64,000 bases of DNA from Myxococcota bacterium (lineage in GTDB: Bacteria > Myxococcota_A > SURF-8): positions 640,001-704,000 of the forward strand of contig OZ223209.1 of assembly GCA_965140415.1 (NCBI GenBank), read 5' to 3'. The notes beneath the pieces were generated by a model that did no database searches, was not told the DNA's origin, and worked only from the letters and a program-made list of their open reading frames with translations. The translations under genes were made by a program, and so were the position numbers. Shown here piece after piece: positions 1,233 to 18,872 of this stretch (position 1 is the first letter of the stretch; each line of letters starts with the position of its first letter).

Positions 1233-1327
1233 CTTCGATTTCGGAACTATTTCCGATAGGAATGAAAATTACTGTTGCAAACAGAGTTATGGTTTGATAC
1301 TCTGTTGACATTCAAGGAGGATTTGAA

Positions 1328-1573
1328 ATGGCGGTAAAGCTTCGGTTGACGCGGATGGGTGCGAAGAAACGCCCGTTTTACCGGGTAGTGGCGGCGGATT
1401 CCCGCTTCCCGAGAGATGGTCGGTTCCTCGAACTGCTGGGAACCTACGACCCCCGCAACGACGCCAATATGGTAAACTTGAAGATGGATCGGGTCAATTA
1501 CTGGCTGGAGCAGGGCGCGGAAATCTCCGACACTGTTAAAAGCCTGGTGAAGAAAGTGAATATCGCCGGCTAG
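1328..1573 (+). CDS. rpsP: 30S ribosomal protein S16
   Basis: MAVKLRLTRMGAKKRPFYRVVAADSR; AGGAGG RBS; synteny. Confidence 0.98.
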   Translation: MAVKLRLTRMGAKKRPFYRVVAADSRFPRDGRFLELLGTYDPRNDANMVNLKMDRVNYWLEQGAEISDTVKSLVKKVNIAG

Positions 1574-1677
1574 GCGATTGCTCGATATGAACAATGTGTG
1601 TGGGTGGGTAGCTATGTCGTAGTACGGTGTAGTTCTCGTTTGCAGTTGTGCTTCACCTTTTACATCAGAGGGTTTCC

Positions 1678-1911
1678 ATGCTAAAAGATCTTATTGAGTT
1701 CATTGCGAAGGCGCTTGTAGACGATCCTGATTCTGTTGACGTTTCGGAAGTCGAAGGCGAACAAACTTCCGTGATCGAACTAAAGGTTGCCAAGGACGAC
1801 CTCGGAAAAGTGATCGGCAAACAAGGGCGTACGGCTCGGGCGATGCGTACCATTCTCAGTGCGGCTTCCACCAAAATCCGGAAGCGTTCCGTACTGGAAA
1901 TCATCGAATAA
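1678..1911 (+). CDS. khpA: KH-domain RNA-binding protein KhpA (UPF0109)
   Basis: [17 protein letters not shown]; between rpsP and rimM; ATG at 1678 preferred over the longer ORF. Confidence 0.93.
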
Positions 1912-1961
1912 TTCCGAGCTGAAACACGGGCTGCGGTGTGGATACGAATACCGCGAGGAGC

Positions 1962-1997
1962 AGGGCAAGACGCGATAGTGCGGCTTGTCCTTTTTTG
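1962..1997 (+). terminator. Probable intrinsic terminator after khpA
   Basis: GGGCAAG...CTTGTCC stem followed by TTTTTT. Confidence 0.55.
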
Positions 1998-2021
1998 TCT
2001 TTTACTCTGTAGTAAAATGCA

Positions 2022-2540
2022 ATGAAATACATCGAAATCGGAAGAATCATGGGGGCGCACGGCGTGCGTGGGGACGTTCGCGTTATGACCTACAACCCGG
2101 AAAGCCCGCTGCTGGTTCAAGGCGGCAGCCTCTATCTTGAAACAGACGAAGGATATCAAGAGGTTATACTCACCTTCGTACGCACCGCCTCGCGTGGCTG
2201 GGTGGCGCATTTAAGCGGAATCGAGGATCGTGAGCAGGCCAAGGCGCTGTATCAGGAGTCACTGTATGCCTCCCGTGAACAGCTTGGACCGTTGGGTCAA
2301 GGCGAGACGTACATCTTCGATTTGATCGGGTTGACGGTCAAGGATGCGGAAAGCGGAACGGCATACGGTCAGATTCGCGACGTGTTGCAGACCGGTGCGC
2401 ATGACTGTTACGAAGTCTACGACGGAAAACGGGAATTGCTCGTTCCCGTAACGGAAGAAGTCGTGCGCAAGGTCGATCTGCAAAAGGGTGAAGTGCTGGT
2501 CATCTTGCCCGAGGGATTGCTGGATATCTATGAAAATTGA
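2022..2540 (+). CDS. rimM: 16S rRNA processing protein RimM
   Basis: IGRIMGAHGVRGDV, YIFDLIGL, QTGAHD; synteny. Confidence 0.95.
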   Translation: MKYIEIGRIMGAHGVRGDVRVMTYNPESPLLVQGGSLYLETDEGYQEVILTFVRTASRGWVAHLSGIEDREQAKALYQESLYASREQLGPLGQGETYIFDLIGLTVKDAESGTAYGQIRDVLQTGAHDCYEVYDGKRELLVPVTEEVVRKVDLQKGEVLVILPEGLLDIYEN

Positions 2541-3264
2541 GATACTGACCATTCTGCCGGGAGTGCTGCATTCCTATTTGCAGGAAGGCATGATCGGGCG
2601 TGCCGTGCGCGACAAGCGGCTGACGATCAACCTGGTGAATGTTCGAAATTACGCCGAAGACCGGCATCAAACGACCGATGATACTCCTTATGGCGGTGGT
2701 CCCGGTCAGTTGATGAAAGCGGAGCCTTTGGCCAATGCGGTCAAGTCTCTGCGGCCCATGAAAAGCAGTCGCACGATCTTTTTAACGCCGCAGGGAAAGC
2801 CGTTTGCGGCGACGGATGCGAAAAGGCTGGCTAAGTACAAGCGGTTGGTTCTGGTCTGTGGGCGTTATGAAGGCGTGGATCAGCGTTTTCGAGATCGCTA
2901 CGTAGACGAAGAGCTGTCGATTGGCGATTATGTATTGACAGGCGGTGAATTGCCGGCTTTAGTGGTATTGGATGCGGTGGCGCGCTTCGTTCCCGGTGTG
3001 CTGGGAAATCAGGATTCGGCGGAGGCGGACAGCTTTTCCAATGGATTACTGGAGCATCCGCAGTATACCAAGCCGCGCGTGTTCGAAGGCCTGGAAGTTC
3101 CCGCCGTGTTGCTGTCGGGCAATCATTCCAAGATCGAAGCCTGGCGGCAGCAGCAGTCCGAACAGCGGACCAGGCAGGTACGACCGGATCTATTGAAAGG
3201 TGAAATCGAGGCGGAAAATCTCCCTGTGCCGGAGAGAAAAACAGGAAAGCAAAAAAAAGGTTGA
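2530..3264 (+). CDS. trmD: tRNA (guanine-N1)-methyltransferase TrmD
   Basis: DDTPYGGGPG, CGRYEGVDQR, SIGDYVLTGGE; start MKIEILT at 2530 overlaps rimM. Confidence 0.97.
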   Translation: MKIEILTILPGVLHSYLQEGMIGRAVRDKRLTINLVNVRNYAEDRHQTTDDTPYGGGPGQLMKAEPLANAVKSLRPMKSSRTIFLTPQGKPFAATDAKRLAKYKRLVLVCGRYEGVDQRFRDRYVDEELSIGDYVLTGGELPALVVLDAVARFVPGVLGNQDSAEADSFSNGLLEHPQYTKPRVFEGLEVPAVLLSGNHSKIEAWRQQQSEQRTRQVRPDLLKGEIEAENLPVPERKTGKQKKG

Positions 3265-3363
3265 TTTTTAATCTGAGTTTCCTGTATAGTTCCGCGTCCG
3301 ATTGGATGACTACTCGCTTTTGTGAAAAAGCAGGTAATAGACGATTTAGGAAAGGGTACTCCG

Positions 3364-3720
3364 ATGAAGGCGCATGAAGTGATTCGAGAGTTCGAGCAGA
3401 ATCAGATCCGTATGGACATCCCGGATTTCCGGGTCGGTGATCGCATTCGCGTATACATTAAGGTTCGCGAAGGAGACAAAGAACGTCTACAGCCCTTCGA
3501 GGGCGACGTGATCCGCAGAACCGGTGGAGCCGCGAGAGCGACGTTTACCGTTCGCAAAGTGTCCTATGGAATCGGCGTTGAGCGCATCTTCCCGGTCAAC
3601 TCGCCGTTGATCGCCAAGATGGACATCATCACGCGCGGTAAAGTGCGTCGCAGCCGTCTGTACTACCTGCGCGAACTGCGCGGCAAAGCGGCTCGCATCA
3701 AGGAGAAGCGTTTCCGCTAA
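3364..3720 (+). CDS. rplS: 50S ribosomal protein L19
   Basis: [34 protein letters not shown]. Confidence 0.97.
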
Positions 3721-3726
3721 GCCTCC

Positions 3727-4401
3727 ATGCCCGATCGCGTCTCCCAGTTATCGTTCGGTTTTACCGATGAGTTACAAAACCTGGGAGACGTCGAACGCTG
3801 GGCGGCGACTCGAACTATCCCCTACATTACAGGTGTAGACGAAGCTGGCCGTGGGCCACTGGCGGGACCGGTGGTTGCTGCGGCCGTTTGTTTTGCGCCG
3901 GATATCCGCATCGAACGACTGGACGATTCAAAGCGTTTAAGCGCCACCCTGCGCGAGGCGCTCTTTCCCGAAATCCGCAAACAGGCGTTGGGCTGGGGCG
4001 TGGCCTACGGCTCTCCCGCCTTGATTCACGAAAAGAACATCCTGCAAGCAACACGCATCTGTATGCGTCGGGCATTCAGATTGGCGCAGACTCGCGGTGC
4101 TGGCGATGGCCTGGTGGTGATAGACGGCAACCAGCGCATCGACATCGAGCAACAGCAGTGGGCGCTTGTGGGTGGCGATCGTTTAAGCGTGGCGGTGGCG
4201 GCGGCGTCGGTATTGGCCAAGGTGTTGCGGGATCGCTGGATGACGGTAGCCGCCAAGCGCTGGCCCCAGTACGGCTTCGAGCGTCATAAAGGCTACGGCA
4301 CCAAAGCGCATCTGCTGGCCATCGCTGAACACGGCCCCTGTCCGATTCACCGCCTCGACTTCCGTGGCGTGCGCGAGCACGTGAAGAATAGCAACGAGTA
4401 G
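3727..4401 (+). CDS. rnhB: Ribonuclease HII
   Basis: GVDEAGRGPLAGPVVAAAV, DSKRL, AASVLAKV, HKGYGT. Confidence 0.96.
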   Translation: MPDRVSQLSFGFTDELQNLGDVERWAATRTIPYITGVDEAGRGPLAGPVVAAAVCFAPDIRIERLDDSKRLSATLREALFPEIRKQALGWGVAYGSPALIHEKNILQATRICMRRAFRLAQTRGAGDGLVVIDGNQRIDIEQQQWALVGGDRLSVAVAAASVLAKVLRDRWMTVAAKRWPQYGFERHKGYGTKAHLLAIAEHGPCPIHRLDFRGVREHVKNSNE

Positions 4402-4476: not shown

Positions 4477-6057
4477 TTACCATGTTACATGAGAAATCAT
4501 TGAATTGATGGGTTTAGTAATCAACCACGCTTGTCGTTCACCTCGCCATACTTTGCTCAGAAGAAACGCATCGTAGGAGTTAGCATAATTTTGAAAATCA
4601 AACATGGAGAATGGATCCCATTGGTCGATGATAATACTACTTGTCTTTTCCATGTAGTTACGGGAAGGTTCTATCAAATTGATCGCAACTATAAATGCAT
4701 GATTAGTTGCTATCATTCCCACATAATAAGGATTATAGGTGGCAACCATCAGCGGCCAGCCGCCCATGCCGGTGCTCGCCATAACTCTGTCCCCCCAATA
4801 GCTGTCAGGGAGAGGTAACTCATCATAAAAAGATACTGACTCATCGTTTAAAGGGTTAAACCTTAGCAGATCATTTTGGATTCGATAATCTGCTGATTCT
4901 GTTACTATAGAAGAATGCCTTGCGATCCACAGGCCGTTTTCATCGACACCAACCAGACGGGAAACATCGTCTCCGAAATCGACACTGAAATCATGGGCTG
5001 AAGAGCAGTCTGTGGAATTGGGGGTCAACGCATAGAGCCGGTTGCCTCCCATCAGGTAATAGGTTTCTCCAAACCAGTAACCGACTTCGTTGAGTTGTGC
5101 TCGCATACCCTCGCAGGCCGGGACACGGTTCCATGCCTGGGTGTCGGTGAAATAGAAGTAGGTCGAATCATACTTACGGTGATCCTGCAAAGCGACATTT
5201 AAGGTGACTACAGCATCTTGTACTTTCAGGCTGTACGGATGTTTCACTTCTTCGGCGTTCTCAGAATCGACGGTTGTTTCGTTCGGCACGAGTTCCGCAG
5301 GTAGATCGAAAAAACTCCATTCACCTTGATACAGGCGTCCGAGCCGGGTTGCCGTCGCGATCCAGATTTCCACCTGGTCTTCCAGCAGTCTGCCATCCAG
5401 CGTGAAAACGTACTCATTCACCCGTTCGTCACAGCGCAGTTCGTTGCCGGCTTCATCGTATTCCCAGAAATGATTGCCTGCAAACCAGGCTTTACCTGCA
5501 TCATTTGACCAGACATCCGCAACGCGAAACCCCCTACCATCCTCACAGCGAACAATGGTGGTATCTTCAAAAGGAAAAGTATCCATGCTCAGGTTCAGGG
5601 TCTCAATATCCGGTTCCTGTTCCATCTCGGAGGCACTATCCGATTCGGTTTCCACATCCGGTTCGATTTCGATATTGTCCACACCGTCCGGGTCGGCGTC
5701 GAATTCCAAGATGTCTCCATCCGTTTCCGGTGTTTCGTTATCGAGATCACGATCGCCATCCGCATCGGAATCGCCATTTGCATCTGTATCACCATCTGAA
5801 TCCAGATCGGTATCCCGGTCTCCATCCACCGGTGTTTCATCCATATCGGCGGGGGGAGGATCGCTGTCGGGAAGATCGGCTTCCAAATCGCCGTCGGAAG
5901 GATTCTCACGATCAACGAGTTCCGTATCCTGGTCGGCGGGCGGCAGATCGCCATCCGCCGAGGAACCGTCGTCCGAGCAGGCAGGCAACAGCAGCAGGCA
6001 GGCAAGCAGACCCAGTAGAAACATGACGAATCGTTTGTTAAAGAAAAGAGAGGACAT
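4477..6057 (-). CDS. Hypothetical lipoprotein with acidic DGD linker and beta-rich C-terminal domain
   Basis: Lipobox LLPAC; Asp/Gly/Glu-rich linker with many DGD; AGGAGG RBS. Confidence 0.75.
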   Translation of the reverse strand: MSSLFFNKRFVMFLLGLLACLLLLPACSDDGSSADGDLPPADQDTELVDRENPSDGDLEADLPDSDPPPADMDETPVDGDRDTDLDSDGDTDANGDSDADGDRDLDNETPETDGDILEFDADPDGVDNIEIEPDVETESDSASEMEQEPDIETLNLSMDTFPFEDTTIVRCEDGRGFRVADVWSNDAGKAWFAGNHFWEYDEAGNELRCDERVNEYVFTLDGRLLEDQVEIWIATATRLGRLYQGEWSFFDLPAELVPNETTVDSENAEEVKHPYSLKVQDAVVTLNVALQDHRKYDSTYFYFTDTQAWNRVPACEGMRAQLNEVGYWFGETYYLMGGNRLYALTPNSTDCSSAHDFSVDFGDDVSRLVGVDENGLWIARHSSIVTESADYRIQNDLLRFNPLNDESVSFYDELPLPDSYWGDRVMASTGMGGWPLMVATYNPYYVGMIATNHAFIVAINLIEPSRNYMEKTSSIIIDQWDPFSMFDFQNYANSYDAFLLSKVWRGERQAWLITKPINSMISHVTW

Positions 6058-6313: not shown

Positions 6314-9300
6314 CTATTCCAGGCCCTCGAATTCACCGTCGGTGGCGATCGTGGCCACCAGGCGGCTGGTAGCGGGGGACAGAACCACGACCTCATCATC
6401 ATCGGTATTGGCGATCACGAAGTTGCCTGCGGAGTCGAAAGCGAAACCGCGTGGGCCGTTGAGTCGTTTGCTGCCGAACAGAATCTCGCGCGAGGCGGGG
6501 CCGCCGTAGACGAGCATCTGTTTGGTTTCATCGCCGTGGCGAATGATGTTCGAGCTGGTGGCATGGGCCAATACGGCGGCGGGAACTTTGCTGATGTAAC
6601 CGCTCTTGGCCGGTACCTGTCTGTCACTGTAGCTGCCCACGAACGGCCACTTGTTGCTGGTGCCCTTCTGATGCAGGATGTAAAGGTTACCGGTGGCATT
6701 GAATTTCATCGCGCTGACGTTGCGGAAGCTGTTGCCGTCGGAAAGCTGCTCGGGCGATTGCAATTCGCCATCGATCATGCGCTGGCGGTACAGGCGGTTT
6801 TTACGGATGTAGTACAGGTTGCCCTGCGCATCGATAGCCGGAGCAGTCAGCGAGCTGTTGAACTGGGCGATCAATTCGCCGTTCTGGCCCTGCTCGTCGG
6901 AGACGGCACCGTTGGTTTCCAGCGCGAAGCGGACGACCTGCTTGGCGTTGCTGCGGGTGACGTAGATCCAACCACCATTGTTATCCACGACGTTGCCGCT
7001 GGTGCGGTCGATACCGCGCTGGGTGTTGTCACCCATGAAGAAGCGCTGGGTCGAACCGGCGTCGCCGTTGCGGAAGTCGGGAGATTGGCTCTGGCCAAGC
7101 TGATTGGTGCGGCTGTTGCGCACGATTTTCCAGATGCCGTCGTCGGAGCTGCTGCCGGTGTCGGTGACGTACAGGTAACCCTGCGGCGACAGACTGACCT
7201 TATTGGGGCGGAAGTCTTCGTATTGCGTGTTGGCGCTGGTGTCGTCGGCCAACTGGACCTGGCCTGTGCGTCGGTGCAGATCGTTGATGGACAGCACCGC
7301 ACCGGTTTTGCTCTGGTCGCTGCTCAGAATCGTAGAGCCGTCCTTGGAACCGGCGACATAGATACTGCCGTCGTTGTCTACTACGACATCCCAGGGGCGC
7401 GACAGGCCGGCGTAGGTCACTTCCAGATTCTCGCCATCGGGGTCGCAGGCTTCGCCGTGGCCGTCCAAGTCCGGGTCGGCCTGATCGGAGTTGGCGGCCA
7501 GCGGGCAGTTATCGTCTTCATCGAGCACGTCGTCGTTGTCATCATCATCATCCACACAGTCGGCCACGCCGTCCTGGTCGGTGTCATCGAAGCCCTCATC
7601 CACTTCGCCGTCGCCGGTGTTGTCCACGCCGTCGCAGACTTCCGTGACCATCGTCGGTTCGACCCAGTCCATCACGCAGCGGAAACCGATGTTGTCCGAT
7701 TTCAGCAGCGCCGGGCGCTTTTCGCGCTGGAAGATGCGCAGCTGGCGAGCGTCGGAGAGGAAGGAGCCACCGCGAGTGACCTTGTTGGAACAGTTGGCCA
7801 GACACGCCGTGTCGCCGTGGCAACCCATGCGGCATTCTTCTTCGCCGTCCACGTAAGGATGGCTGACGGCGCTGTCCTCATCGGGGGCGTCGGGGTAGGT
7901 ATGGTAGTTGTCGGCCACCCATTCTTCCACGTTACCAGCCATGTCGAAGATGCAGCGGGTGCCGTTGCAGGTGGAGCCGTCTTCGTAGCCGGGATTCTTG
8001 CCGTTGAACTGACCGACCTTCATGGTGGTGTTCTGGCCCATATCCATGCCGTTGGCGGCGGTTTCTTCGTAGGTGTCGCCCCAGGGGTAACGGCCTTCGC
8101 CACGCGGCTTGGCGGCCACTTCCCACTCGGCTTCCGTCGGCAGGCGCAGACCCTGGCTGATGCAGTATTTCTTGGCGTCGCTCCAGTCTACGTAGGTGAC
8201 GGGATGCGTATCGCGACCGGCTCTCCAGTAATCGGCTTCCTGAGTAGGCTGATGCTCGCAGCCGGTGGCGCAGTAGTTGTTGTCATTGCAGTAGTGCATG
8301 TTCGGACAGTCCGTGTCAATTTCGCAATGCTGAGGCGTCTGGTTGTACTTGGTGACGCATTCACGGTACTGCCGGTTGGTGGTTTCGTATTGCATGATCA
8401 GGATCGGACCGACTTCCACATAATGCTGCTTTTCATCGGTGTAGCACTGTTTGCCGTCGGGGCAGCCCATCTGGTAGACGGCGCGCGCTTCGAAGGAGTA
8501 ACCCGGCGGGATGGTCGGCTCGGGCGCATCGGCATCGGCGATGACGAAGTGGAAGTGCGTCGGTTCGCTCCACAGACCGGCGTTGTTCTGGCCGCGCACA
8601 TGGAAGTAGTACTCGCCCGGTTGCATGTCGGTGTAATCCATTTCGGACACGGTGCTGTCGATCTGCTCGTTAGGCATCGTAGCAGGTTCCGTATCGACCG
8701 TGTAGGAGTAGCCCGCGATACCGGACAGGTCGCTCATGGTCCACACGAAGCGCGGATCGTTGTTCTGGTATTCCATGTCCTGCGACACGTGGGTCGGGGA
8801 ACTCACCACCGGGGCTTCGGGGGCGCTGGCGTCGATCTTGACCATGTAGTGAGCGGTTTCGCCCCAGTTACCCGAATCATCGACGGTGCGCACGTGGAAG
8901 TACCAGATGCCGTCGGCGACGTCTTCGTACACGGCGGAACCTTCTTTACTCGTCACGTGCTCGGAAGGATCGGGGCAGGCGGGCAGATCGGGATCTTCGC
9001 TGCCGATCACGTCGCGACCGGCCTGTAAGGTGAAGCTGTAGAGTCCTTCCACCAGCATACCCGATTTGATCTTGTGCTGAATCGAACCCAGGTGTTGCGG
9101 GCCCGGCTCGATCTGGATGTTGAACATCAACACCGCCGGTTCATCCTGCGCTTCCAACGCTGCCAGCATGGAGCTGTCGATGTCGTTGGTGACGGTGACG
9201 TCATCCAGCTTCAACCAGAAGCTACCATGATTGCCCTGCGCGAAGATGTACTCGTTGGCGGTTTTCAGGCTGCCTTCAGCCACGGTCTGGTAACTGCAAT

Positions 9301-12004
9301 CGTCTTGCAGCAGTTGCAGCGCGAAGCCGCTGGTGACGGTGGTTTCGACGAAGGCGAAGCGGTTGCCAGTGTAGCTGGCGGGATTCAGTTCAACCGAATT
9401 GAGCAGCACACGGCTTTTGGGCAGGAAGCAGGCGAAGTCGATGCCGCTGTAGGCGTGCAGCGCGTCGGATTCGGGTGCAACGCCGCTGAGCATCTGGTCG
9501 CCCTGGAAGGTGACGGTTTCGCTGAAGCCGTCGGAGTTCTCGTCCGTGATGCGGAAGGCACCGCTGGCGGTAGCCGTCACATCCGATTCCAGGTCCATAT
9601 CACAGGCGCAGGTGGTTTCTTCCTGAGTGTAATCGAACTCCAGTCCTTCCACGTCGGGCAGTTCGATGTCCGGAGTGATGGTTTCCACGACCACGCCGTC
9701 GGTCGGACGAATCTTGGCGATGGGCGGATAGTCGTTGCTGGTATTATCGATACCTGCGTACAGGAAGCCGTCCGGATGCCATCCCAACGATTCCACATCG
9801 GTGTTGTAAGGCAATTCGGCGATATCTTCGATTGTTTCACCGTCGATGTCGATGCGTACCAGTTTGGAGTAGCTGCCGGAGTTGTCCAGGCCGTACAGGG
9901 TGCCGCTGGGACCGAAGGCACAACCTTCGATGTTACCGGTGACGTTCATCACGCGGGTCAGTTGTGCCGTTTCCGTATCGATCGTGTACAGGCGGTTGGT
10001 GGCGGTGGAGATCGCATACAGCAGGCCGTCGGGTGAAGTCGCCAGGCAGTCCAGATCCTGAACGGTGGAACCGTTGTCCTTAAGCCGACCCACTTCTTCG
10101 GCTCGGATGTTGATGCCGCTCTTGTTGGTCGGATCGATGCGGTACAGGCGGTTGGCGATGGTGGAATGACCGGTGTTGTTGATGCCGTAGAACTGGCCGT
10201 TCAGGATCGCCAGCGATTCCAGGTCTTCCAGGGTGCGGTTATTCGGGCTGCGCACGCGACCCAGTTCGGTCACCTGCGGTTCGTCGTCGTAGAGATCCAT
10301 GTAGAACATGGTGCCGTCGCCGTCGTTCACGCCATAGGCGCGGTAGTTGTAAGCGCCCGCACCGTGACCGGAGCAACTGCATACCGGGGCGCTGGTGGCA
10401 CCGGCGGCGGGATTGGAAGGCAGCAGGAAGCGGTCTTTCGGAATGATTTCTTCGCTGCCACCCGGAGGCGTCCACCACACTTGCAGTGCGATCAGCACAC
10501 GCGGTCCTTGGAAGTACTCCACCACGAAATCATGCAGACCCGCTTCCAGGTAAACACTGCCAGTTTTTACTACCGGAGCATGTACGCCGTCGTTGTCGAT
10601 AACCTTGTTGCCGTCGATCCACAAAATCGAGCCATCGTCCGAATTCATTTTAAAGCGATATGTACCACTTCTGGGCACGTCCAGACCCGCCGTGAAGCGA
10701 ATGGTGAACCATTCCAGCAGGGTGTCGTCCACACCGGGGAAACCTTCCTCGAAACGGTGTGTAGGAACGTTCAACTGGCAGGCGGTGATGGTCGATTGCG
10801 GCTCGCCCATGGTGTCAAAATCGGGCATACGGCAACCCCAGTCGTAGCAGCCCAGATCGTAGACTTTGCCCAACAGACCCTTGCCGATTTCAAACTCACC
10901 GTCCGGGCAGAAGGCGGTGTCGCCAACGACTTCCAGCGAGCGCTCACAGGTTGCTTCTCCTTTGGGATTGAAGATTTTCACTTCATAAGAACCCAGCGTC
11001 ATAGGCGCTTCCAGTACGATCTGCGTGGGCTGCACGCTGATAATGCTGGCCGGTTCATCATTCAGAGTCACCGTGATGGTCGAGGTCCATTGACCGAAGT
11101 TCGTGCCGTACACAGTGGCCATGCCACCCTGCAATACCACCGTCGGTTCGACTGTCGCGCAGGTCGGAGCGTCGGCGTAGGTACTGGGTTGACATTCGGC
11201 GGCGGCTTCATCTTCCACCGTGTGATCGGCGACTTCGTCGGGCACCGTGGAAGGAACTTGATCGAAGGAGAAGGAGAATCCATCTACGCCGATGTCATCG
11301 GTAGCAGTCCAATGGAATTCGGCGGTATTTTCGGGGGACCAGGCATCGCTGTCGGGATGTGAGGGGGAATCCACGACGGGAGTCGATGGGGGCGTGCTGT
11401 CCAGTTCTTCGGTGCGATAACTGCGAATGTGGATGACCGGATGCAGAATGTAGCCTTCACCCGGCGCGTAATGCACGGAAGAAGACGCATCCCAGTCGAG
11501 CAGCATGGTAGAGACGGTTTCGTCGTCTGCCTCGAAGTGGAACTTGATTTTCACGCCGCTGCTGGAGCCGCTGGGCACGAACAGGTCGTAGGTGTCACCC
11601 TCGACCACGATCGAGCTGTCCGTCACCAGCAGGCGCAGTTCGCTGTAGGAGCCCGCCGGGATGGAGGTAATGCCCAGGGTGCTGGCCACACCATAGCGCA
11701 ATCCCAATAAATCCAGTGTTTGCGTCTGGTTAGAGATCGTGATCCAGCCGCGCTCATCGTGATGTGCAGCAACTTCGCTGATCGTTAGCCAGACGTTATC
11801 GACATTATCCACCGGTTTGTCGGTCAACTGCACCCGCAAACGGGGCGAGATGTCCGTCAGATCCGGATCATTATAAATGTCTTCGTCCAGCGGTGCACTG
11901 GGGTCGGAGTCACCGGCCTGTTGCCCGCAACCGACAACCAGCAGCACTACAGCGATCAGCAACCACAGCGCCTTGCTCGTTTTGTTTCGTGTTATGTTGC
12001 TCAT
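6314..12004 (-). CDS. Giant multidomain surface lipoprotein (~1896 aa): DUF4382, split Ig-like module, IPT/TIG, PA14, beta-propeller, Ig-like repeat, FGE/SUMF1-like domain, thrombospondin type 3 repeats, NHL-like propeller
   Basis: Lipobox LVVGC; LTDKP..VPSGSSSGVK (DUF4382); SDDGSILWIDGNKVIDNDGVH (PA14); RLPTEAEWE, DMAGNVEEW, RGGSF, IGFRC (FGE-like); DNCPLAANSDQADPDLDGHGEACD (TSP3); start set at ATG 12004 with GAGGGA RBS, downstream of the sigma54 promoter. Confidence 0.85.
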   Translation of the reverse strand: MSNITRNKTSKALWLLIAVVLLVVGCGQQAGDSDPSAPLDEDIYNDPDLTDISPRLRVQLTDKPVDNVDNVWLTISEVAAHHDERGWITISNQTQTLDLLGLRYGVASTLGITSIPAGSYSELRLLVTDSSIVVEGDTYDLFVPSGSSSGVKIKFHFEADDETVSTMLLDWDASSSVHYAPGEGYILHPVIHIRSYRTEELDSTPPSTPVVDSPSHPDSDAWSPENTAEFHWTATDDIGVDGFSFSFDQVPSTVPDEVADHTVEDEAAAECQPSTYADAPTCATVEPTVVLQGGMATVYGTNFGQWTSTITVTLNDEPASIISVQPTQIVLEAPMTLGSYEVKIFNPKGEATCERSLEVVGDTAFCPDGEFEIGKGLLGKVYDLGCYDWGCRMPDFDTMGEPQSTITACQLNVPTHRFEEGFPGVDDTLLEWFTIRFTAGLDVPRSGTYRFKMNSDDGSILWIDGNKVIDNDGVHAPVVKTGSVYLEAGLHDFVVEYFQGPRVLIALQVWWTPPGGSEEIIPKDRFLLPSNPAAGATSAPVCSCSGHGAGAYNYRAYGVNDGDGTMFYMDLYDDEPQVTELGRVRSPNNRTLEDLESLAILNGQFYGINNTGHSTIANRLYRIDPTNKSGINIRAEEVGRLKDNGSTVQDLDCLATSPDGLLYAISTATNRLYTIDTETAQLTRVMNVTGNIEGCAFGPSGTLYGLDNSGSYSKLVRIDIDGETIEDIAELPYNTDVESLGWHPDGFLYAGIDNTSNDYPPIAKIRPTDGVVVETITPDIELPDVEGLEFDYTQEETTCACDMDLESDVTATASGAFRITDENSDGFSETVTFQGDQMLSGVAPESDALHAYSGIDFACFLPKSRVLLNSVELNPASYTGNRFAFVETTVTSGFALQLLQDDCSYQTVAEGSLKTANEYIFAQGNHGSFWLKLDDVTVTNDIDSSMLAALEAQDEPAVLMFNIQIEPGPQHLGSIQHKIKSGMLVEGLYSFTLQAGRDVIGSEDPDLPACPDPSEHVTSKEGSAVYEDVADGIWYFHVRTVDDSGNWGETAHYMVKIDASAPEAPVVSSPTHVSQDMEYQNNDPRFVWTMSDLSGIAGYSYTVDTEPATMPNEQIDSTVSEMDYTDMQPGEYYFHVRGQNNAGLWSEPTHFHFVIADADAPEPTIPPGYSFEARAVYQMGCPDGKQCYTDEKQHYVEVGPILIMQYETTNRQYRECVTKYNQTPQHCEIDTDCPNMHYCNDNNYCATGCEHQPTQEADYWRAGRDTHPVTYVDWSDAKKYCISQGLRLPTEAEWEVAAKPRGEGRYPWGDTYEETAANGMDMGQNTTMKVGQFNGKNPGYEDGSTCNGTRCIFDMAGNVEEWVADNYHTYPDAPDEDSAVSHPYVDGEEECRMGCHGDTACLANCSNKVTRGGSFLSDARQLRIFQREKRPALLKSDNIGFRCVMDWVEPTMVTEVCDGVDNTGDGEVDEGFDDTDQDGVADCVDDDDDNDDVLDEDDNCPLAANSDQADPDLDGHGEACDPDGENLEVTYAGLSRPWDVVVDNDGSIYVAGSKDGSTILSSDQSKTGAVLSINDLHRRTGQVQLADDTSANTQYEDFRPNKVSLSPQGYLYVTDTGSSSDDGIWKIVRNSRTNQLGQSQSPDFRNGDAGSTQRFFMGDNTQRGIDRTSGNVVDNNGGWIYVTRSNAKQVVRFALETNGAVSDEQGQNGELIAQFNSSLTAPAIDAQGNLYYIRKNRLYRQRMIDGELQSPEQLSDGNSFRNVSAMKFNATGNLYILHQKGTSNKWPFVGSYSDRQVPAKSGYISKVPAAVLAHATSSNIIRHGDETKQMLVYGGPASREILFGSKRLNGPRGFAFDSAGNFVIANTDDDEVVVLSPATSRLVATIATDGEFEGLE

Positions 12005-12073
12005 TCCCTCGCTCCCTTGTTTGCGCCATGGTCCCCATTTTGCCATGGCAGTTTCAACACGCCTATTAGTAGG

Positions 12074-12090
12074 AGCAAATTCAGTGCCAA
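12074..12090 (-). promoter_or_regulatory. Sigma54 (-24/-12) promoter of the giant lipoprotein gene
   Basis: Minus strand TTGGCAC-TGAAT-TTGCT matches TGGCAC-N5-TTGCW, 70 bp upstream of the ATG. Confidence 0.88.
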
Positions 12091-12202
12091 ATCGGCCCAT
12101 TTTTTGAATTAATTTTTCCACAGTCATTCCAACATGTTTCGACTTTGCAATGAATACAAATTTCGCAGTCAATTTTTCTCAGTGTTAACAAGCTGACATT
12201 CT

Positions 12203-12346: not shown

Positions 12347-13648
12347 TTAATTGTTTTCTTCCGGTTTTTCCAAGTTGTAGTTTTTAATTTTCTTATAAAG
12401 CGTAACTCGCGATATCCCTAGAACTTCACTAGCTTTTTTTATGTTCCAATCCGTGATCTTCAGAACGCGCCGAATATGCTGACGTTCTACATCCTGTAGA
12501 TTATAGCTCTTCAATTCCGTTTGTGTCACGCGTTTACGGTAACTTCTCAGCATTTGGTCTACGTCCTGGGTCAATATCGTCGTGTCCTTGGCCATAAATG
12601 CCAGGCGTGTGATGACGTTTTCCAGTTCGCGAACATTGCCGGGCCAATCGTAACCTTGCAGTTTGGCAAGCGCCCCATCCTCGAATTGACGCGACCAGGG
12701 GTCTCCGTAGTTTTCCTTCGAATGGCGTTGCAGAATGTCGATGGCAAGCACCGGAATATCGTCCGGGCGTTCGCGCAGCGAAGGCAGATGAATCGGAAAC
12801 ACGTTGATCCGATAAAACAGATCTTCCCGGAATTCCCCGGTTTTTACCATTTCTTCCAAGGGGCGATGCGTGGCGGCGATCATGCGCACATCCACTTTGA
12901 TACTTGCCGCGCCGCCCAGCCGCTCGAAGGTTTTGTTTTGCAGCACGCGCAACAGTTTGACCTGGTTGGCGATGCTCAATTCTCCCAACTCATCCAAAAA
13001 CAGCGTTCCGCTGTCCGCCAGTTCAAAGCGACCCAGCTTGCGTCCGCTGGCACCGGTAAACGCCCCTTTCTCGTGGCCGAACATCTCCGTTTCAAACAGC
13101 GTGTCAGGCAACGTCGCGCAGTTTACGGCGAAGAAGGGATTGAGCGCCCGTGGGGAAAGTTCGTGGATGGCGCTGGCTACCAGTTCCTTTCCGGTGCCGG
13201 TTTCGCCGTGAATCAGCACGGTGGCGTCTGAACGAGCGATAGTGTGGATCATTTCGAAGACGAGCTTCATTTTCTCGTCTACGCCGATCATTTTGGACAG
13301 GTATTTTTCCTGCACCGCCGAACGTTTTTCTACCAGGCTTTTATTGTCGCTTAGAATCGAGCTGACGTTTTCCAGCAGGCCGTTGTCACCGGCATTGCGC
13401 AGACGATAAGCGCGGCCACCGGGAATCGGGACTTCCTCCACGATTTCCTCGGAAATCATCGGGGCCAAACAGGCCATGACATCGCGCACCAGTACCCCGG
13501 ATTGTTTGGATAAGCCCCCGATATCGTATACCCTTGTAGGATCTTTGGCGAAAATCGAAAGTAAATGAAGGCGTAAAGGCGAACGCATCTGATGGTACAA
13601 GGGACTCGACTTGCCCAGTTTCAGATCCCAATCGACCGTATTTACCAT
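12347..13648 (-). CDS. Sigma54-dependent transcriptional activator (bEBP) with wHTH-like N-terminal domain
   Basis: GETGTGKE, GAFTGA, LFLDE, FREDLFYR, WPGNVRELEN, C-terminal Fis-type HTH; no receiver/PAS/GAF domain recognised. Confidence 0.93.
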   Translation of the reverse strand: MVNTVDWDLKLGKSSPLYHQMRSPLRLHLLSIFAKDPTRVYDIGGLSKQSGVLVRDVMACLAPMISEEIVEEVPIPGGRAYRLRNAGDNGLLENVSSILSDNKSLVEKRSAVQEKYLSKMIGVDEKMKLVFEMIHTIARSDATVLIHGETGTGKELVASAIHELSPRALNPFFAVNCATLPDTLFETEMFGHEKGAFTGASGRKLGRFELADSGTLFLDELGELSIANQVKLLRVLQNKTFERLGGAASIKVDVRMIAATHRPLEEMVKTGEFREDLFYRINVFPIHLPSLRERPDDIPVLAIDILQRHSKENYGDPWSRQFEDGALAKLQGYDWPGNVRELENVITRLAFMAKDTTILTQDVDQMLRSYRKRVTQTELKSYNLQDVERQHIRRVLKITDWNIKKASEVLGISRVTLYKKIKNYNLEKPEENN

Positions 13649-13921: not shown

Positions 13922-14219
13922 CGAGTTCAGATAAGTTTGCAATCTTTTGCGATGTACTCCCCGATATAATCTGGTATTTAAAAAGGGTTGCAAGCATCAT
14001 TTAATATGAAGTAGTATGAGTGACGATTCATCAAGCCATAACGGCTTACTTGGAAATGGGATTTCGCACCGGGTAACGTGAACGCCAAAAGACGAATGTG
14101 GAGGAGTATCGATTCTCCAAAGCGGCGGTCTGAAATGGGGATGTTCACTGTTGTAAAATGACCGGTCCCGTTCGTTCTCTTGCATGATGACGCAACGGGT
14201 TTTCGCAAGGAGTAGTGCT

Positions 14220-17045
14220 ATGACACGCGGTATCTTGGTGGTGTGTTTGGGATGGCTGATGTTGCTTTCAGCCTGTTCGAGTGGTGACGATCCGGCGGCA
14301 GTAGCCTGTTTAACGGACAGTGATTGTCCGCTTGGGCAGGTCTGTGACGGCGGTTTTTGCGGTGAGCCTGCGGATGACCGCATTGCCTGCACGATCTCGG
14401 AAGAATGTCCGGCGGGATATTTCTGCCTGAGCGGCTATTGCGTAGAGCAGAGCGGCACAGACGGCGATTCGTTTGTGGGTGAATGTCGCGAAGACTACGA
14501 CTGCGACAGCGGCTATCATTGCGAGGATAATTTCTGTATCCCCGATAACCTTGTGGACGGCGACCATTCCGATGGCGACACGCCGGATGGCGATCAGCCT
14601 GATGGGGACCAGCCGACCGATGGCGACACGCCGATCGACGGCGATACGCCGATCGACGGAGATACGCCGATTGACGGTGATACGCCGGTGGACGGTGACA
14701 AGCCGGTGGATGGTGATCTGCCCGATGGTGACGGCCCCGACTGCACCAGCAGTGCCCAGTGTAACGACGGATTGTATTGTAATGGCACCGAAACCTGCGT
14801 GTTAGGCGTTTGCGAACCTGGCGAAGCGCCCTGCGACGATGAGATTTCCTGTACCGACGATGTCTGCAACGAGGAAAACAACAGTTGCGCTCATACCATC
14901 AACCACACCACCTGCAACGACGGCGATCCCTGCAACGGCGTGGAATACTGCGACAACGTGCTTGGCTGTCAAAGCGGTTCGCCGTTAAACTGCGATGATC
15001 GTATCGCCTGCACCGACGACAGTTGCGTACCTAATGAAGGCTGCTCCAATGTCGCCAATAACGGCAATTGCGACGATGGTGACCCTTGCAACGGCGAGGA
15101 AGTCTGCGACGTGATTCTGGGTTGTCAACCCGGCACAGCGCTAACTTGCGACGATTCCATCGGTTGCACCACGGATCGTTGTCTGACCGGCCAAGGCTGC
15201 GAAAGTACGCCGGATAACAGCTTGTGTACGGGAGAAGATGTCTGCGAGCCGGACCGCGTTTCCGCCGATCCGCTGACCGGTTGCGCTCCGCCGCGCAATT
15301 GCACGACCGATGCGGATTGTCAGGACAACACGCTGTGCAACGGCGCGGAAACCTGCAACGACGATCAGATCTGCGAACCGGGCACGGCGGTTAATTGCAA
15401 CGATGAAATCGACTGCACCGAAGATACTTGCGATCCCGGCACGGGACAATGCAGCAACACGCCGAGAAACAGCCTGTGCACCAATGGCAACGCCTGCGAC
15501 GGTGAGGAAATCTGTTCCGCAATCGAAGGCTGTCTGCCGGGTACGACGCTTAACTGCGACGACAACATCACCTGCACCCAGGATAGCTGCAACAGCGACA
15601 CCGGTTGCGTACATCAGCCGGTCAACGGCCTATGCAACGACAACGTTCGTTGTACGTTAGACACCTGCGATGCGGCCACAGGTTGTGTCAATACACCGGA
15701 CAATACTTTCTGCGACGACTTCGTTCCCTGTACCGTCAATACCTGTGATGCTACGCAAGGCTGCGTGTTTATACCCAATGACGGCGCCTGTAACGACGAT
15801 TTCGAATGCACCACCGATACCTGTTCGGAGCAATATGACTGCACCTACGTGCCCGACAACAGCGCCTGCGACGATGGTATCGATTGCACCGACGATCTGT
15901 GCGAGATCGGCGTCGGCTGCCGTAACAACGCCGAAGATTCCAACTGTCCCAGCGGTCAGATCTGCGATGCGGAGTTGGGCTGTGTCGATCCGCCTCCTTG
16001 CGTAATCGACAGCGACTGCAACGATAACGACGCCTGTAACGGTGTGGAAACCTGCGTAAGCAATGAATGTGTGGACGGTACGCCGCTTAACTGCGATGAC
16101 GGCATTGCCTGTACCGTCGATTCCTGCGACCCGGCCAATGGTTGCGTCAACCGGGCGGATCATTCCGTCTGTAACGACAACAATGCCTGCACCGTGGATC
16201 TGTGCGACACCGAAGAGCAGTTCGCCTGCGTACATTTGCCGTTTAAAGACGATGACAACGACAATCACAGCGATGTGTTCTGTGGTGGCGACGACTGCGA
16301 TGACAGCGACCCGAACGTCTATCCGGGTCACGAGGAAATTTGCGACGACGGCGTAGACAATAACTGCGACGGTAACACCGACCAGGAAGAAGCCATTTGC
16401 GCGCCCTGCTCGGGAAGCTGCCCCACCGGTTATGAATGCTGTGGCGGTCAGTGCGTGGACGTGCGCTACAACAATACCCATTGCGGTGCCTGCGATACAC
16501 CCTGTTCTACCGCCTGTTTCAACGGCGAATGTCTGCCCGCCGGAAAATGTGCCAACGCGCTGAATAACTTGATTACGGACAACTACCGCGACAATGGACG
16601 CACCACCTGTGGCCAGGGTAACAGTTTCAATCCCAACAGTTGCAGCGTAAACGCCAGCGGTGAGGATCGTGTATACGCCATCAAGCCGCGAGCGGGCAAC
16701 CTGATGGAAGTAGTCATGTATCCGGATAATTCGGAAGACTACGATGTCTTGTATTTCCTTTCCGACTGCCGTGACATGAACTCCTGCATCGATTACGACA
16801 GCAGCGGCAACTGGTCGAACTTGGAGTATTCCGATTCCAACACCGGAGAGATCTTCTTCGCGGTGGTCGATTACACCCAAAGCGATTGCGGACGTTACGA
16901 TTTCGAAGTCAACTACGACTACACTCCCAGCGATTGTCGCCAGGGCGGCCTGTTGCCCTTCGGCGGTCCCGCTTCTACGGTAACGGGTGTGCTGGTCTGG
17001 CTTGGCATTCTGCTATTACTCTATCGTCGTCGGCAACGGCAGTAA
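14220..17045 (+). CDS. Cys-rich repeat surface lipoprotein with DGD linker and C-terminal sorting-like tail
   Basis: Lipobox LLSAC; repeated CDDxIxCTxDxC and CNDGxxCNGxExC units; DCDDSDPNVYPGHEEICDDGVDNNCDG motif; Cys-TM-RRRQRQ tail; AAGGAG RBS before ATG 14220. Confidence 0.85.
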   Translation: MTRGILVVCLGWLMLLSACSSGDDPAAVACLTDSDCPLGQVCDGGFCGEPADDRIACTISEECPAGYFCLSGYCVEQSGTDGDSFVGECREDYDCDSGYHCEDNFCIPDNLVDGDHSDGDTPDGDQPDGDQPTDGDTPIDGDTPIDGDTPIDGDTPVDGDKPVDGDLPDGDGPDCTSSAQCNDGLYCNGTETCVLGVCEPGEAPCDDEISCTDDVCNEENNSCAHTINHTTCNDGDPCNGVEYCDNVLGCQSGSPLNCDDRIACTDDSCVPNEGCSNVANNGNCDDGDPCNGEEVCDVILGCQPGTALTCDDSIGCTTDRCLTGQGCESTPDNSLCTGEDVCEPDRVSADPLTGCAPPRNCTTDADCQDNTLCNGAETCNDDQICEPGTAVNCNDEIDCTEDTCDPGTGQCSNTPRNSLCTNGNACDGEEICSAIEGCLPGTTLNCDDNITCTQDSCNSDTGCVHQPVNGLCNDNVRCTLDTCDAATGCVNTPDNTFCDDFVPCTVNTCDATQGCVFIPNDGACNDDFECTTDTCSEQYDCTYVPDNSACDDGIDCTDDLCEIGVGCRNNAEDSNCPSGQICDAELGCVDPPPCVIDSDCNDNDACNGVETCVSNECVDGTPLNCDDGIACTVDSCDPANGCVNRADHSVCNDNNACTVDLCDTEEQFACVHLPFKDDDNDNHSDVFCGGDDCDDSDPNVYPGHEEICDDGVDNNCDGNTDQEEAICAPCSGSCPTGYECCGGQCVDVRYNNTHCGACDTPCSTACFNGECLPAGKCANALNNLITDNYRDNGRTTCGQGNSFNPNSCSVNASGEDRVYAIKPRAGNLMEVVMYPDNSEDYDVLYFLSDCRDMNSCIDYDSSGNWSNLEYSDSNTGEIFFAVVDYTQSDCGRYDFEVNYDYTPSDCRQGGLLPFGGPASTVTGVLVWLGILLLLYRRRQRQ
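14556..14733 (+). repeat. Intragenic 15-18 bp tandem repeat encoding DGDTPI/DGDQP units
   Basis: GAYGGNGAYACGCCG units read directly, with synonymous variation between copies. Confidence 0.85.
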
Positions 17046-17048
17046 CGC

Positions 17049-18872
17049 ATGTCGATGAGATTCTCATGTCAAACAGGGTTGCAGGCCGTCATGCTTGCGG
17101 CCCTGTTTTTGTTTGGTCTGGCATCTTTTCCCGGTTGTGCGCCGAGTCGCCTTTTGCTGCCTCATGCCACTTCGGAATACGCCGCCGCGGTGCAGTTGAC
17201 ACGCATTGCCGCAGAAGACCGGCTTTGGGCGGATAGTTTGGCGCATATTCGAAGTGACAAACCGGATGCGGCATTGCCGACTCCCGCCGCAACGCTCGTG
17301 CGCGCCGCGCGGGATCTGGCGGCTTTGTCACTGGTTGCGGATGAAACCTACAGCCCGGAGGACTTTTTAGAACCGGTTCTGCTTCGCAACGGCATTGTGG
17401 AGCGCCCGGCGCGCGCGTACTGGTTTACCGGAACCGGCGGCGGCCTGGCCTACGATGGCTCCTCCCGCATCGCAGGGAAGATTCTGTTTTTAAAGCAACA
17501 GGGCTATACACGGATCGGGTTGGGTGTGCATGAGCGCGACGACGGCGAATGGGCGGCAGCGCTGGTGGCGACGCAACGCCCGGTGCGTTTGACTCTTCCC
17601 GTTGCCAGAATAATCCCGATCGGCGGAAATCTGCGCCTGATCGCGGAAACGGGAGATGAGATCGGCGTTTTGTGGATTACGCTGAAATCGCCCAACGGCC
17701 ATCTTTTCGAACAGTCGGTTCCCTATCTTGCCGGACAACTGGATTGGGGCGTTCGCCTGCATTGGCCGGGGAATTACGCCATTGAAATCCGTATGAAAAC
17801 GCCGGCGGGCGATATCAAGCGTGTCGCGCATTTGGTGGTGACTGTCGGTGAACGAGCCACGCAGATTCCGTTGTTTCCGCCGCCGCCGCAGGTATCCGGC
17901 AAGCAATATCCCAGCGCCGCGCTGGGGTACATCGACGAGTTGCGCACGAAAAGTGGTATGGATACGCTAACTTCGTTACCGCGAGCCGATGAACTGCTTG
18001 CACCCTGGTTGCAGATGGAAGCGCAGCATCTGCGCTTTAGCGACGACGGCATCGAGCGGCAATTGTTTGTTTCCGGTTCCGAAAGCGATCCGCCGCTGAG
18101 TTGCTTGTATCGCAGCTCCGTGACGAATAATCCAGGAGCGTTATTGGCGCGTGAATTCGGGCGACCCAGCGTGTTGAAAGCCATGATTCAACCGGCGTAT
18201 CAAGGTTATGCCGCGCTGTCACAGTTGCTGGAAGAGGGCGAGCGCATCGGGGAATTGCTTTGCGGTGTGGCGCAACCTTCTCAAATGCTGCTTACCCGTT
18301 TGCCTGCGCACGAGGATCGTCTGGCGTTTTTAAAAGAACTCGATGCCCGGTTAATGAAGCAGATGGGACTGGATTACGTGGCCGATCCACAGCAGCGCCT
18401 GATCGAGTGGACGCTGGCGCAGGCGGTGCTATCGATTGAAGAAGCCGAAGCAAGGAAAGAAAGAAATACCGCCAAAGACAGTGAGAAAACCCCAACGCTC
18501 CCGCATCGCGACCGCTATGAGCAACAACTGAACGAGACCTACGCTTCCTTGTGGTGGGTGTCCTGGCAGTTGCAGCAGCGTTTTGACAGGCAGGATCCGC
18601 GCCGGGCGGCTGTGTCGCTGTTATTGCTTAAACTGTTGTTGTTACAGGATCGCGAGGATGACTACCTGGCCGAGATGCGGCGCATGGAAGAGACTTCTCC
18701 CACCCAGGGCCCCTGGCGGGAAGCGCGATTGGCGGTGGCACAAGCCTGGATGGCTTCTCGACGCGGTGATATGAATCAACGAAAAGAGGCGCTGCTTCGC
18801 GCCATCGAATGCTACCAGCACCTCCAATTCTCCAGCTTTGCCCAGCAGCTTTGGTTGCAGGCGTCGGAATAA
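17049..18872 (+). CDS. Hypothetical lipoprotein with degenerate CAP/SCP-like segments and helical C-terminus
   Basis: Lipobox FPGC; GYTRIGLGV and YIDELRTKSGMDTL resemble CAP-domain motifs; 3 bp after the upstream gene. Confidence 0.55.
   Translation: MSMRFSCQTGLQAVMLAALFLFGLASFPGCAPSRLLLPHATSEYAAAVQLTRIAAEDRLWADSLAHIRSDKPDAALPTPAATLVRAARDLAALSLVADETYSPEDFLEPVLLRNGIVERPARAYWFTGTGGGLAYDGSSRIAGKILFLKQQGYTRIGLGVHERDDGEWAAALVATQRPVRLTLPVARIIPIGGNLRLIAETGDEIGVLWITLKSPNGHLFEQSVPYLAGQLDWGVRLHWPGNYAIEIRMKTPAGDIKRVAHLVVTVGERATQIPLFPPPPQVSGKQYPSAALGYIDELRTKSGMDTLTSLPRADELLAPWLQMEAQHLRFSDDGIERQLFVSGSESDPPLSCLYRSSVTNNPGALLAREFGRPSVLKAMIQPAYQGYAALSQLLEEGERIGELLCGVAQPSQMLLTRLPAHEDRLAFLKELDARLMKQMGLDYVADPQQRLIEWTLAQAVLSIEEAEARKERNTAKDSEKTPTLPHRDRYEQQLNETYASLWWVSWQLQQRFDRQDPRRAAVSLLLLKLLLLQDREDDYLAEMRRMEETSPTQGPWREARLAVAQAWMASRRGDMNQRKEALLRAIECYQHLQFSSFAQQLWLQASE

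Follow-up and report, generated by a model that had tools for sequence, protein, structure and literature searches.

How might a single β-sandwich domain be assembled from two halves that lie 756 residues apart in the polypeptide chain? This question is raised by a lipoprotein gene in a 64,000-nt stretch of the Myxococcota contig OZ223209.1 (GCA_965140415.1, positions 640,001 to 704,000), termed the window here. The gene is contained in a single open frame of 1,952 codons on the minus strand (6314-12172; P0001), to which all residue numbers refer: the TTG at 12172 is residue 1 and the ATG at 12004 is M57. All features of this gene described below are likewise on the minus strand. A fibronectin type III (FN3)-like module of the lipoprotein is cut after strand C/C' by 756 amino acid residues (aa). 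The evidence described below makes such a split domain highly probable, and standard annotation overlooks it entirely.

A first-pass annotation had proposed that an Ig-like module is halved by a cassette of about 756 aa, and this proposal has been borne out. Its motifs are all located, where it had placed them, in the one open frame: DSTPPSTP starts at 11401, DEVADHT ends at 11219, the AVYED..KID segment ends at 8831 and the intact module starts at 8833. The N-half of the split module (aa 257-320, 11213..11404) comprises strands A, B and C with a C' stretch, the C-half (aa 1075-1113, 8834..8950) comprises strands E, F and G, and a second, intact FN3-like module follows (aa 1113-1211, 8540..8836). 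In BLASTP analysis, the intact module matches the 100 aa starting at 11401 with 37% identity over 75 aa (aa 258-332, E 8e-16) and the 100 aa preceding itself with 36% identity over 45 aa (aa 1069-1113, E 8e-09), and these two matches cover complementary, non-overlapping parts of it. Hidden Markov models (HMMs) of the half-modules, constructed from 139 intact copies in the collected sequences, support the same boundaries and indicate an excess spacing of 756 aa between the halves. The N-half scores 65.0 bits (40th percentile of the 139 intact modules) and the C-half 63.7 bits (91st percentile), the reference being the HMM training set itself, which includes the second module of this family. After removal of pairs with another N-half in between, 245 distinct N-half/C-half pairs were counted: the excess is at most 30 aa in 232 pairs, 53-117 aa in three, and more than 200 aa in ten, all of which belong to this lipoprotein family.

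The module is termed FN3-like because nearly the whole Pfam fn3 profile (PF00041, positions 2-83 of 84; E 4e-04) is matched, but at 21 bits, under the cut-off of 25. Its neighbours in the ESM Atlas carry fn3, Big_13 or Ig_Rha78A_N on 11-94% of members, and a sequence search with the intact module returned no solved relative.

The two halves bear signs of a maintained fold. If the insertion had wrecked the module and left the halves as unfolded remnants serving only as linkers, the low predicted confidence of each half alone (41-50 beside unrelated partners) would be explained, but they would hardly be conserved as much as, or more than, the intact module: identity to four homologs is 38-64% for the N-half and 53-76% for the C-half, compared with 42-54% for the intact module. 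Both halves also retain core aromatic residues and score on the HMMs like intact modules. The relic explanation is thus very unlikely.

An AlphaFold2 model of aa 250-1215 (966 aa; mean pLDDT 77.8) contains three strands in the N-half (pLDDT 84-90) and three in the C-half (pLDDT 88-91), with linkers below 50. When the halves were folded as two chains, the score was 0.49, compared with 0.00 for the best control; pLDDT was 72/77 for the halves together versus 41-43/42 beside unrelated partners, and the runs agreed in at least 95% of contacts. Of 157 solved complexes, 116 attain the mark used for this assay, as do 2 of 215 mismatches; at scores of 0.60 or below, just 18 of the 157 complexes do so, plus both mismatches. 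The modelling thus lends weak support to pairing of the halves. When the 966-aa model was used to search for similar folds, matches of the PA14, propeller and IPT domains of the insert took up the results, and nothing on the split module emerged.

Two other ways of completing the halves were considered. Completion by adjacent sequence has no candidate, because the neighbours are complete domains: the IPT domain is full, the barrel at the other end of the insert is free-standing elsewhere, and module 2 is complete. Alternatively, a domain swap might pair the C-half (1075-1113) with the N-part of module 2 and the N-half (257-320) with the C-part of module 2, giving two interlocked sandwiches from which the insert would still loop out. 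Homology of the halves to module 2 makes such pairing sterically plausible, the 966-aa model gives no contacts against it, and the two-chain assay contained no competing half. However, module 2 is an uninterrupted, complete domain that would be expected to fold first, from its own local sequence, homologs lacking the insert have two ordinary tandem modules, and the halves pair, weakly, in the two-chain assay without module 2. A swap is therefore regarded as improbable, and closure of one sandwich by its own two halves is the preferred reading.

Homologs of the lipoprotein occur in three states. The long form, with 753-756 aa inserted, was found in seven distinct proteins; the short form, with 503-504 aa inserted and without IPT and PA14, in three (L018, L019 and P0038); and the empty form, in which the first module is intact, in two distant family members (P0040 and P0041). 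Domain order is the same in the latter two (DUF4382, module, module, FGE, TSP3-like repeats and propeller). Instead of a branch at the first module, they have the insert's barrel, in two copies, within one loop of their C-terminal propeller; the corresponding site in the window's protein appears as a BLASTP break at aa 1799/1807 (6752-6778), with barrel matches in both empty forms. In a comparison with 41 genomes, matches extend over the entire region in G001 (56%) and G002 (53%); in G006 and G009, whose short forms lack IPT and PA14, query positions 1-71 and 340-954 are matched by segments that lie nearly next to each other. Further members at 51-56% identity came from a protein search, namely P0003, P0004, P0006 and P0008, which are full, and the N-terminally incomplete P0009. 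Within the window's own class, the family was found in 5 of the 10 genomes, and a strict filter on a 401-genome sample of the phylum gave no member in other classes. No further empty members were obtained: P0041 matched only six genomes of that sample, all of the window's own class (a lower bound, as a stricter filter was used), and a word-based search returned P0041 alone.

These homologs also bear on a possible assembly artefact, which the first-pass annotation had named as a reason for doubt. The same junctions are present in six other long and three short homologs, which come from other assemblies and are 35-56% identical. Four sequencing runs, all in the form of contigs, were also inspected (one, of RNA, has short contigs only). 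One contig spans the whole stretch; the C-junction (8875-9071) is bridged by a contig from a second sample, and the N-junction (11103-11300) by a contig from another study, which is 198 nt long and shows 17 differences. No read or contig joint skipping the insert was found in the four runs. The spanning run may be the source of the window itself, and no support for a chimera was found; its probability is practically nil.

The insert contains the three named domains that had been predicted for it, followed by one without a name. The IPT/TIG extender (aa 333-417, 10922..11176; Pfam E 8.3e-06), which includes C338 and C409, matches the fold of 1qho (Z 14.5, rmsd 1.5, 82 aligned). The PA14 domain (aa 422-588, 10409..10909) matches PF07691 at E 1.9e-20 (73.6 bits, cut-off 24), and its best fold matches are 6qe7 (Z 17.3, rmsd 2.4, 144 aligned), 6m8m (Z 16.8) and MpPA14 (Z 16.3). 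The aspartate pair termed DcisD is described, in PMC6852018, as the calcium/sugar site of PA14 lectin domains. In alignment with clostridial PA14s, D512-D513 (10634-10639) corresponds to the DcisD pair of 6qe7 PA14-A and 6qdi PA14-B, and all 7 distinct long forms retain the pair. Together with the empty/short/long series and the weak two-chain fold, this agrees with the earlier suggestion of a sugar-binding arm looping out of one domain: the insert is likely such an arm, and the lipoprotein would function in glycan adhesion.

The third domain is a β-propeller (aa 605-850, 9623..10360; Pfam DUF6923, E 4.7e-08) with C709 and C751 inside and 20 strands in the model. Its best folds are SCAN nucleotidase (Z 18.1), glutaminyl cyclases (17.0 and 16.9) and YjiK (16.7), at 12-18% identity. 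These matches are five-bladed propellers, and the insert propeller probably has five blades as well.

The fourth domain is a β-barrel without a Pfam match (aa 860-1052, 9017..9595), termed the DGFS barrel here. Its model is of high quality (pLDDT 89.1, pTM 0.82), and its best fold match among 48,161 chains is to up-and-down barrels (Z 7.0, rmsd 3.2, 117 aligned, 3% identity), with none at Z 8 or above; Foldseek gave no match at E 0.001, and the ESM Atlas none at 0.8 or above. When 1.84 billion representatives were searched with a profile of the barrel, 20 matched, and three of these (P0045-P0047) look like repeat noise. Because five of the matched proteins bear PEP-CTERM tails, the barrel is regarded as an exported stand-alone domain. 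In metagenomes scanned with the barrel alignment, none of 128 candidates proved to be a relative; the combination of propeller and barrel yielded one locus. The propeller-barrel pair also terminates unrelated proteins (P0053; L025), which suggests that the short insert is a pre-existing pair.

Barrel and propeller are arranged in other ways elsewhere. In P0043 (aa 25-467), the propeller (132-371) is nested inside the barrel (25-129 and 377-467) rather than placed in tandem. A second barrel gene is present in the window's genome (G000:C1:2669028-2671382, plus strand; L044) and is sister to P0042, which has a MYXO-CTERM-like tail. Two adjacent genes of G006 (L025:8614-10293 and L025:5469-8744, both minus) seem to divide one insert-type propeller: the first encodes the first two blades, interrupted by LamG, and the second encodes the last three blades and the barrel. 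The second gene is similar to L026 and P0053. The divided propeller might be completed in trans.

The same fold matches would fit an enzymatic or sensory branch, in which the propeller would be a calcium-dependent hydrolase or cyclase and PA14 would target it to substrate, within a surface glycan-processing complex under sigma-54 control. The propeller's best folds are enzymes (SCAN nucleotidase and glutaminyl cyclases), the PA14 structures nearest to that of the insert belong to anti-sigma factors, where they sense polysaccharides, and the barrel's weak matches include dirigent/cyclase-type enzymes. However, identity of the propeller to those enzymes is low, as given above, and acidic residues at the blade starts vary among the long forms and are mostly lost in the short forms. 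The barrel's matches to dirigent/AOC, streptavidin and lipocalin-type families stay at Z 7.0 or below, in the range of common arrangements. For signalling, a transmembrane or cytoplasmic part would be needed, and none is present. In addition, the FGE-sulfatase-fold domain of the host (aa 1234-1500, 7673..8473; Pfam E 1.1e-37) is devoid of cysteine between aa 1462 and 1482 in every one of the 11 alignment rows. The catalytic cysteine pair of formylglycine-generating enzymes follows the RGGS motif, and this domain would thus be non-catalytic. Overall, an enzymatic or sensory branch is unlikely compared with a glycan-binding one.

As for cysteines, the first-pass annotation had placed one near each end of the insert as a potential clamp. 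Those two residues are present (C327 in AECQP and C1066 in PACPD), but the insert has 16 cysteines, six of which are in linkers, rather than two. The linker cysteines are C327 (11192..11194), found in 7 of 7 distinct long forms; the motifs C598-x-C600 (10373..10381) and C855-x-C857 (9602..9610); and C1066 (8975..8977). Both motifs and C1066 are invariant in the 11 alignment rows, which represent 10 distinct proteins, and the short forms have a Cys at C327-equivalent spacing from the preceding Pro-Asp. These residues might form a disulfide-bonded hub, for which a ladder pairing (327-1066, 598-857, 600-855) and a petal pairing (327-598, 600-855, 857-1066) fit equally well, the C327-C1066 clamp thus being one of two options. 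The ladder pairing includes that clamp and accounts for the 14-residue linker before C1066. The petal pairing is favoured by P0048 and P0053, in which single cysteines flank the barrel; this argument for C857-C1066 is weakened because only the final three blades of the propeller are present in these proteins, and a second chain may supply the others.

Is the branch exchanged between strains, as had also been suggested? In 45 pairs of 10 homologs, with one genome per species, insert identity correlates with host identity at r=0.97 (the pairs are not independent). The barrel tree repeats the host's well-supported groups, and insert GC (0.58) matches that of the host. These results, with the absence of an insert-skipping joint in the four runs, speak against exchangeability. 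The junctions have no in-register target duplication or terminal inverted repeat, and the Pfam/NCBIfam matches include no transposase or intein family. A diversity-generating retroelement was sought by BLASTN of the gene against its own genome (G000), which gave only 40-66-nt matches of the acidic repeat region; a crude one-motif scan for reverse transcriptase in the same genome, which is 94% complete, gave none. A 27-nt in-frame repeat of 78% identity lies near both junctions (8913-8939 and 11226-11252); it is out of register with the split, since strand E would be lost if the sequence between the copies were taken out, and it is treated as chance. As far as the data reach, the cassette appears to be old and vertically inherited, with variation at the level of families or orders.

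A related proposal sees the lipoprotein as a kin-recognition receptor of the TraA type, with the branch serving as an identity cassette that can be swapped. Myxobacterial TraA chooses partners by a polymorphic PA14-like domain, which PMC3820747 describes as N-terminal, hyper-variable and homophilic, in a protein with Cys-rich repeats and MYXO-CTERM. RTX adhesins swap ligand-binding domains, according to bioRxiv 10.1101/2025.09.30.679566, and three insert states exist in the present family. Like TraA, the lipoprotein comes from Myxococcota, is probably displayed at the surface and combines a PA14-type domain with many cysteines, but its PA14 is internal and conserved, with DcisD kept, and it is anchored through a lipobox at the N-terminus. 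No other part of the insert is as conserved as PA14 (mean identity 63% among seven long forms, equal to DUF4382), the divergence and composition of the insert follow those of the host, and no joint skipping it was detected in the four runs. P0001 has no match to a MYXO-CTERM anchor or to Cys-rich tandem (Myxo Cys) repeats. Kin recognition of this type is thus very doubtful, and a conserved, vertically inherited branch is favoured instead.

The host protein is consistent with a location on the cell surface. The true start of the gene is likely the ATG at 12004, because the database protein (P0002; 6314..12004) has 1,896 aa and the longer frame encloses a sigma-54-type promoter site. A signal peptide and lipobox with Cys82 (11927-12004), read by eye, are followed by DUF4382 (aa 111-250, 11423..11842; Pfam E 1.4e-29), and the lipobox Gly-Cys is invariant in 5 of 5 aligned proteins; the lipoprotein is probably exposed on the surface. 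Downstream of the FGE-fold domain are thrombospondin type-3-like acidic repeats (aa 1510-1580, 7433..7645; weak match to the MtsC TSP3 region, E 1.2e-06), for which homolog P0038 has a Pfam TSP_3 match above cut-off, and a C-terminal NHL-type propeller (aa 1585-1952, 6317..7420; Pfam NHL).

Directly upstream, a gene for a sigma-54-dependent activator is located (12347..13648, minus strand; Sigma54_activat E 7.7e-70, with HTH_8). An activator homolog is also directly upstream of the lipoprotein gene in L016, L017 and L031, and short-form genes have none among neighbouring ORFs of at least 250 aa. A sequence 86 nt before ATG 12004 (12074..12090, minus strand) is promoter-like, being an exact match to the sigma-54 -24/-12 consensus. 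Similar sites, with at most one mismatch, were found in three of five homolog loci checked (the same L016, L017 and L031, but not L018 or L019), and exact sites number 12 genome-wide against about 6 expected. Expression of the lipoprotein is probably controlled by the adjacent activator. Divergent from the activator gene, a 953-aa cysteine-rich protein is encoded (14184-17045, plus) with Dictyostelium-type repeats and a weak Myxo Cys-repeat match. A 526-aa ORF that immediately follows the lipoprotein gene and shares its strand (4477-6057, minus) and a 607-aa ORF (17049-18872, plus) have no Pfam or NCBIfam match, and a housekeeping run of SRP54/ffh, rimM, trmD, rplS and rnhB occupies 51-4401 (plus).

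Taken together, a lipid-anchored multi-ligand surface protein with a split FN3-like module and a glycan-gripping branch is considered a reasonably probable interpretation. Strands A-B-C would be made first, and the chain would leave at the C'-E turn; after four independent domains have folded, the chain would return and strands E-F-G would complete the β-sandwich. The branch would be a bouquet rather than a chain, with PA14, propeller and barrel each having their ends close together and IPT lifting PA14 off the hub. After lipoprotein export, the six linker cysteines would tie the hub, and then the sandwich would close. The calcium-dependent sugar-binding PA14 and two further candidate binding domains would thus project sideways from the main axis, in addition to the non-catalytic FGE-fold domain and the terminal propeller, and the cell might thereby grip glycans on matrix, prey or partner cells.

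Several observations weigh against this interpretation. PA14 is missing from three short and two empty forms and is thus not needed for the core role of the family. All six hub cysteines are in segments with pLDDT below 50. The 966-aa model has a pTM of 0.40 from an alignment of 10 sequences and was read by pLDDT and strands rather than by strand pairing, and the weak two-chain score could stem from resemblance to FN3 structures already solved. A tree built on aa 1113-1798, which all forms share, places the empty forms and the short forms in one group each at 100/100, but the long forms are grouped at 69/87 only and long branches meet, so that IPT-PA14 may have been either gained or lost. As to history, the prevalence of the intact state suggests that two intact modules are ancestral. 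Such an ancestor would have gained a ready-made propeller-barrel cassette once, long ago, with IPT-PA14 gained or lost afterwards and vertical inheritance since.

Among known systems, RTX adhesins are similar in that a discontinuous Ig-type sandwich projects ligand-binding domains. In PMC10865825, PMC12077191 and bioRxiv 10.1101/2025.09.30.679566, RTX adhesins (FrhA SBD-UKD, MpIBP, AhLap) are described as budding such domains, PA14/CBM included, from split Ig-like domains, with second-level nesting in which vWFA or a beta-roll is the split domain. The lipoprotein differs from them in its host, which is an FN3-like module of a protein without RTX repeats or a type I signal, and in its cargo of four domains and 756 aa with a six-cysteine hub; the empty, short and long states at one loop are a further difference. 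Its cut is central, with three strands on each side, whereas the RTX schematics of that preprint show it either behind the first strand or ahead of the final two. No RTX-type family is among the 13 Pfam and 11 NCBIfam matches of the lipoprotein, a retention module is lacking, and two FN3-like modules with one IPT stand in place of a long tandem extender array. Its termini (signal peptide, lipobox and DUF4382 at one end and the NHL propeller at the other) are also unlike those of RTX adhesins. By analogy, the lipoprotein would work like the split Ig domains of RTX adhesins without being one.

Other analogies are more limited. In Gram-positive pilus tip adhesins such as RrgA, fold-back, discontinuous Ig-like domains carry a binding domain from mid-sequence, and the split domains stack as an isopeptide-stabilised stalk with the adhesin at the tip; the lipoprotein branch instead leaves sideways from one module, and the chain continues for 840 aa. 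Insulin receptor FnIII-2, like the lipoprotein module, is an FN3 domain carrying a cysteine-bearing insert. That insert is about 120 aa long and is located in the C-C' loop. As described in PMC2577065, its cysteines form disulfides, and it is one short, partly disordered, cleaved segment of a eukaryotic protein, with no folded multi-domain cargo. PA14 lectin and sensor domains (MpPA14, 6m8m and clostridial RsgI) share the fold (Z 16-17) and the DcisD pair with the lipoprotein PA14, at 17-25% identity over the fold. In a search of mainly open-access literature, no description was found of a central FN3-like cut with four-domain, cysteine-hubbed cargo and an empty/short/long series, and literature on DUF4382, Myxococcota PA14/FGE proteins and nested or domain-insertion adhesins contained nothing on this family, the one DUF4382 paper listed being on archaeal glycoproteomics. 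The main survey of split domains is reportedly that of Graham et al. 2024, which may describe FN3-type or multi-domain cases.

The same FN3-like module hosts other inserts in other proteins, which suggests that it is a generally insertion-tolerant scaffold. A giant ORF of 9,713 aa in the window's genome (G000:C1:4896167-4925305, minus; partly in L043) has B-C loop splits at aa ~3415-3725 and ~4572-4829, and its G008 counterpart (L020, aa 196-485) has the same module split in the B-C loop. The inserts in these two proteins are about 190 aa each and have no Pfam match; by their motifs they look like jelly-roll carbohydrate-binding modules, tentatively CBM4/9-like. The B-C loop is also split in the Coriobacteriia-labelled P0027 (aa 838-1236), by about 296 aa with an LVIVD repeat match, which would be an independent insertion into the same scaffold. 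L024 (G009) has module copies with about 117 and 53 extra residues after strand C (aa 979-1192 and 1578-1732); an apparent 111-aa insert at aa 81-302 of this locus reads as a compensated frameshift and was discarded.

A broader idea is that of a general plug-in system, in which the tolerant FN3-like module, through its B-C and C'-E turns, and cysteine-clamped hubs nest propellers, lectins and barrels at will, including a propeller cut by a barrel or LamG or divided over two adjacent genes. This idea is tentative and rather less likely than not to be correct. If true, split domains completing in trans would exist, and the barrel would be a new adhesin domain common to PEP-CTERM matrix proteins.

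Split host domains now serve as a marker for ligand-binding domains in RTX adhesins. The lipoprotein extends this rule to FN3-like modules, to an uncultured Myxococcota class and to larger multi-domain cargo, and it flags two candidate binding domains, the propeller and the barrel, the latter without a Pfam family or a clear solved relative. In addition, the series of 0, 503 and 756 residues at one turn is a natural test of sandwich folding with halves up to 750 residues apart; it bears on the role of disulfide clamps and would be useful for domain-insertion engineering.

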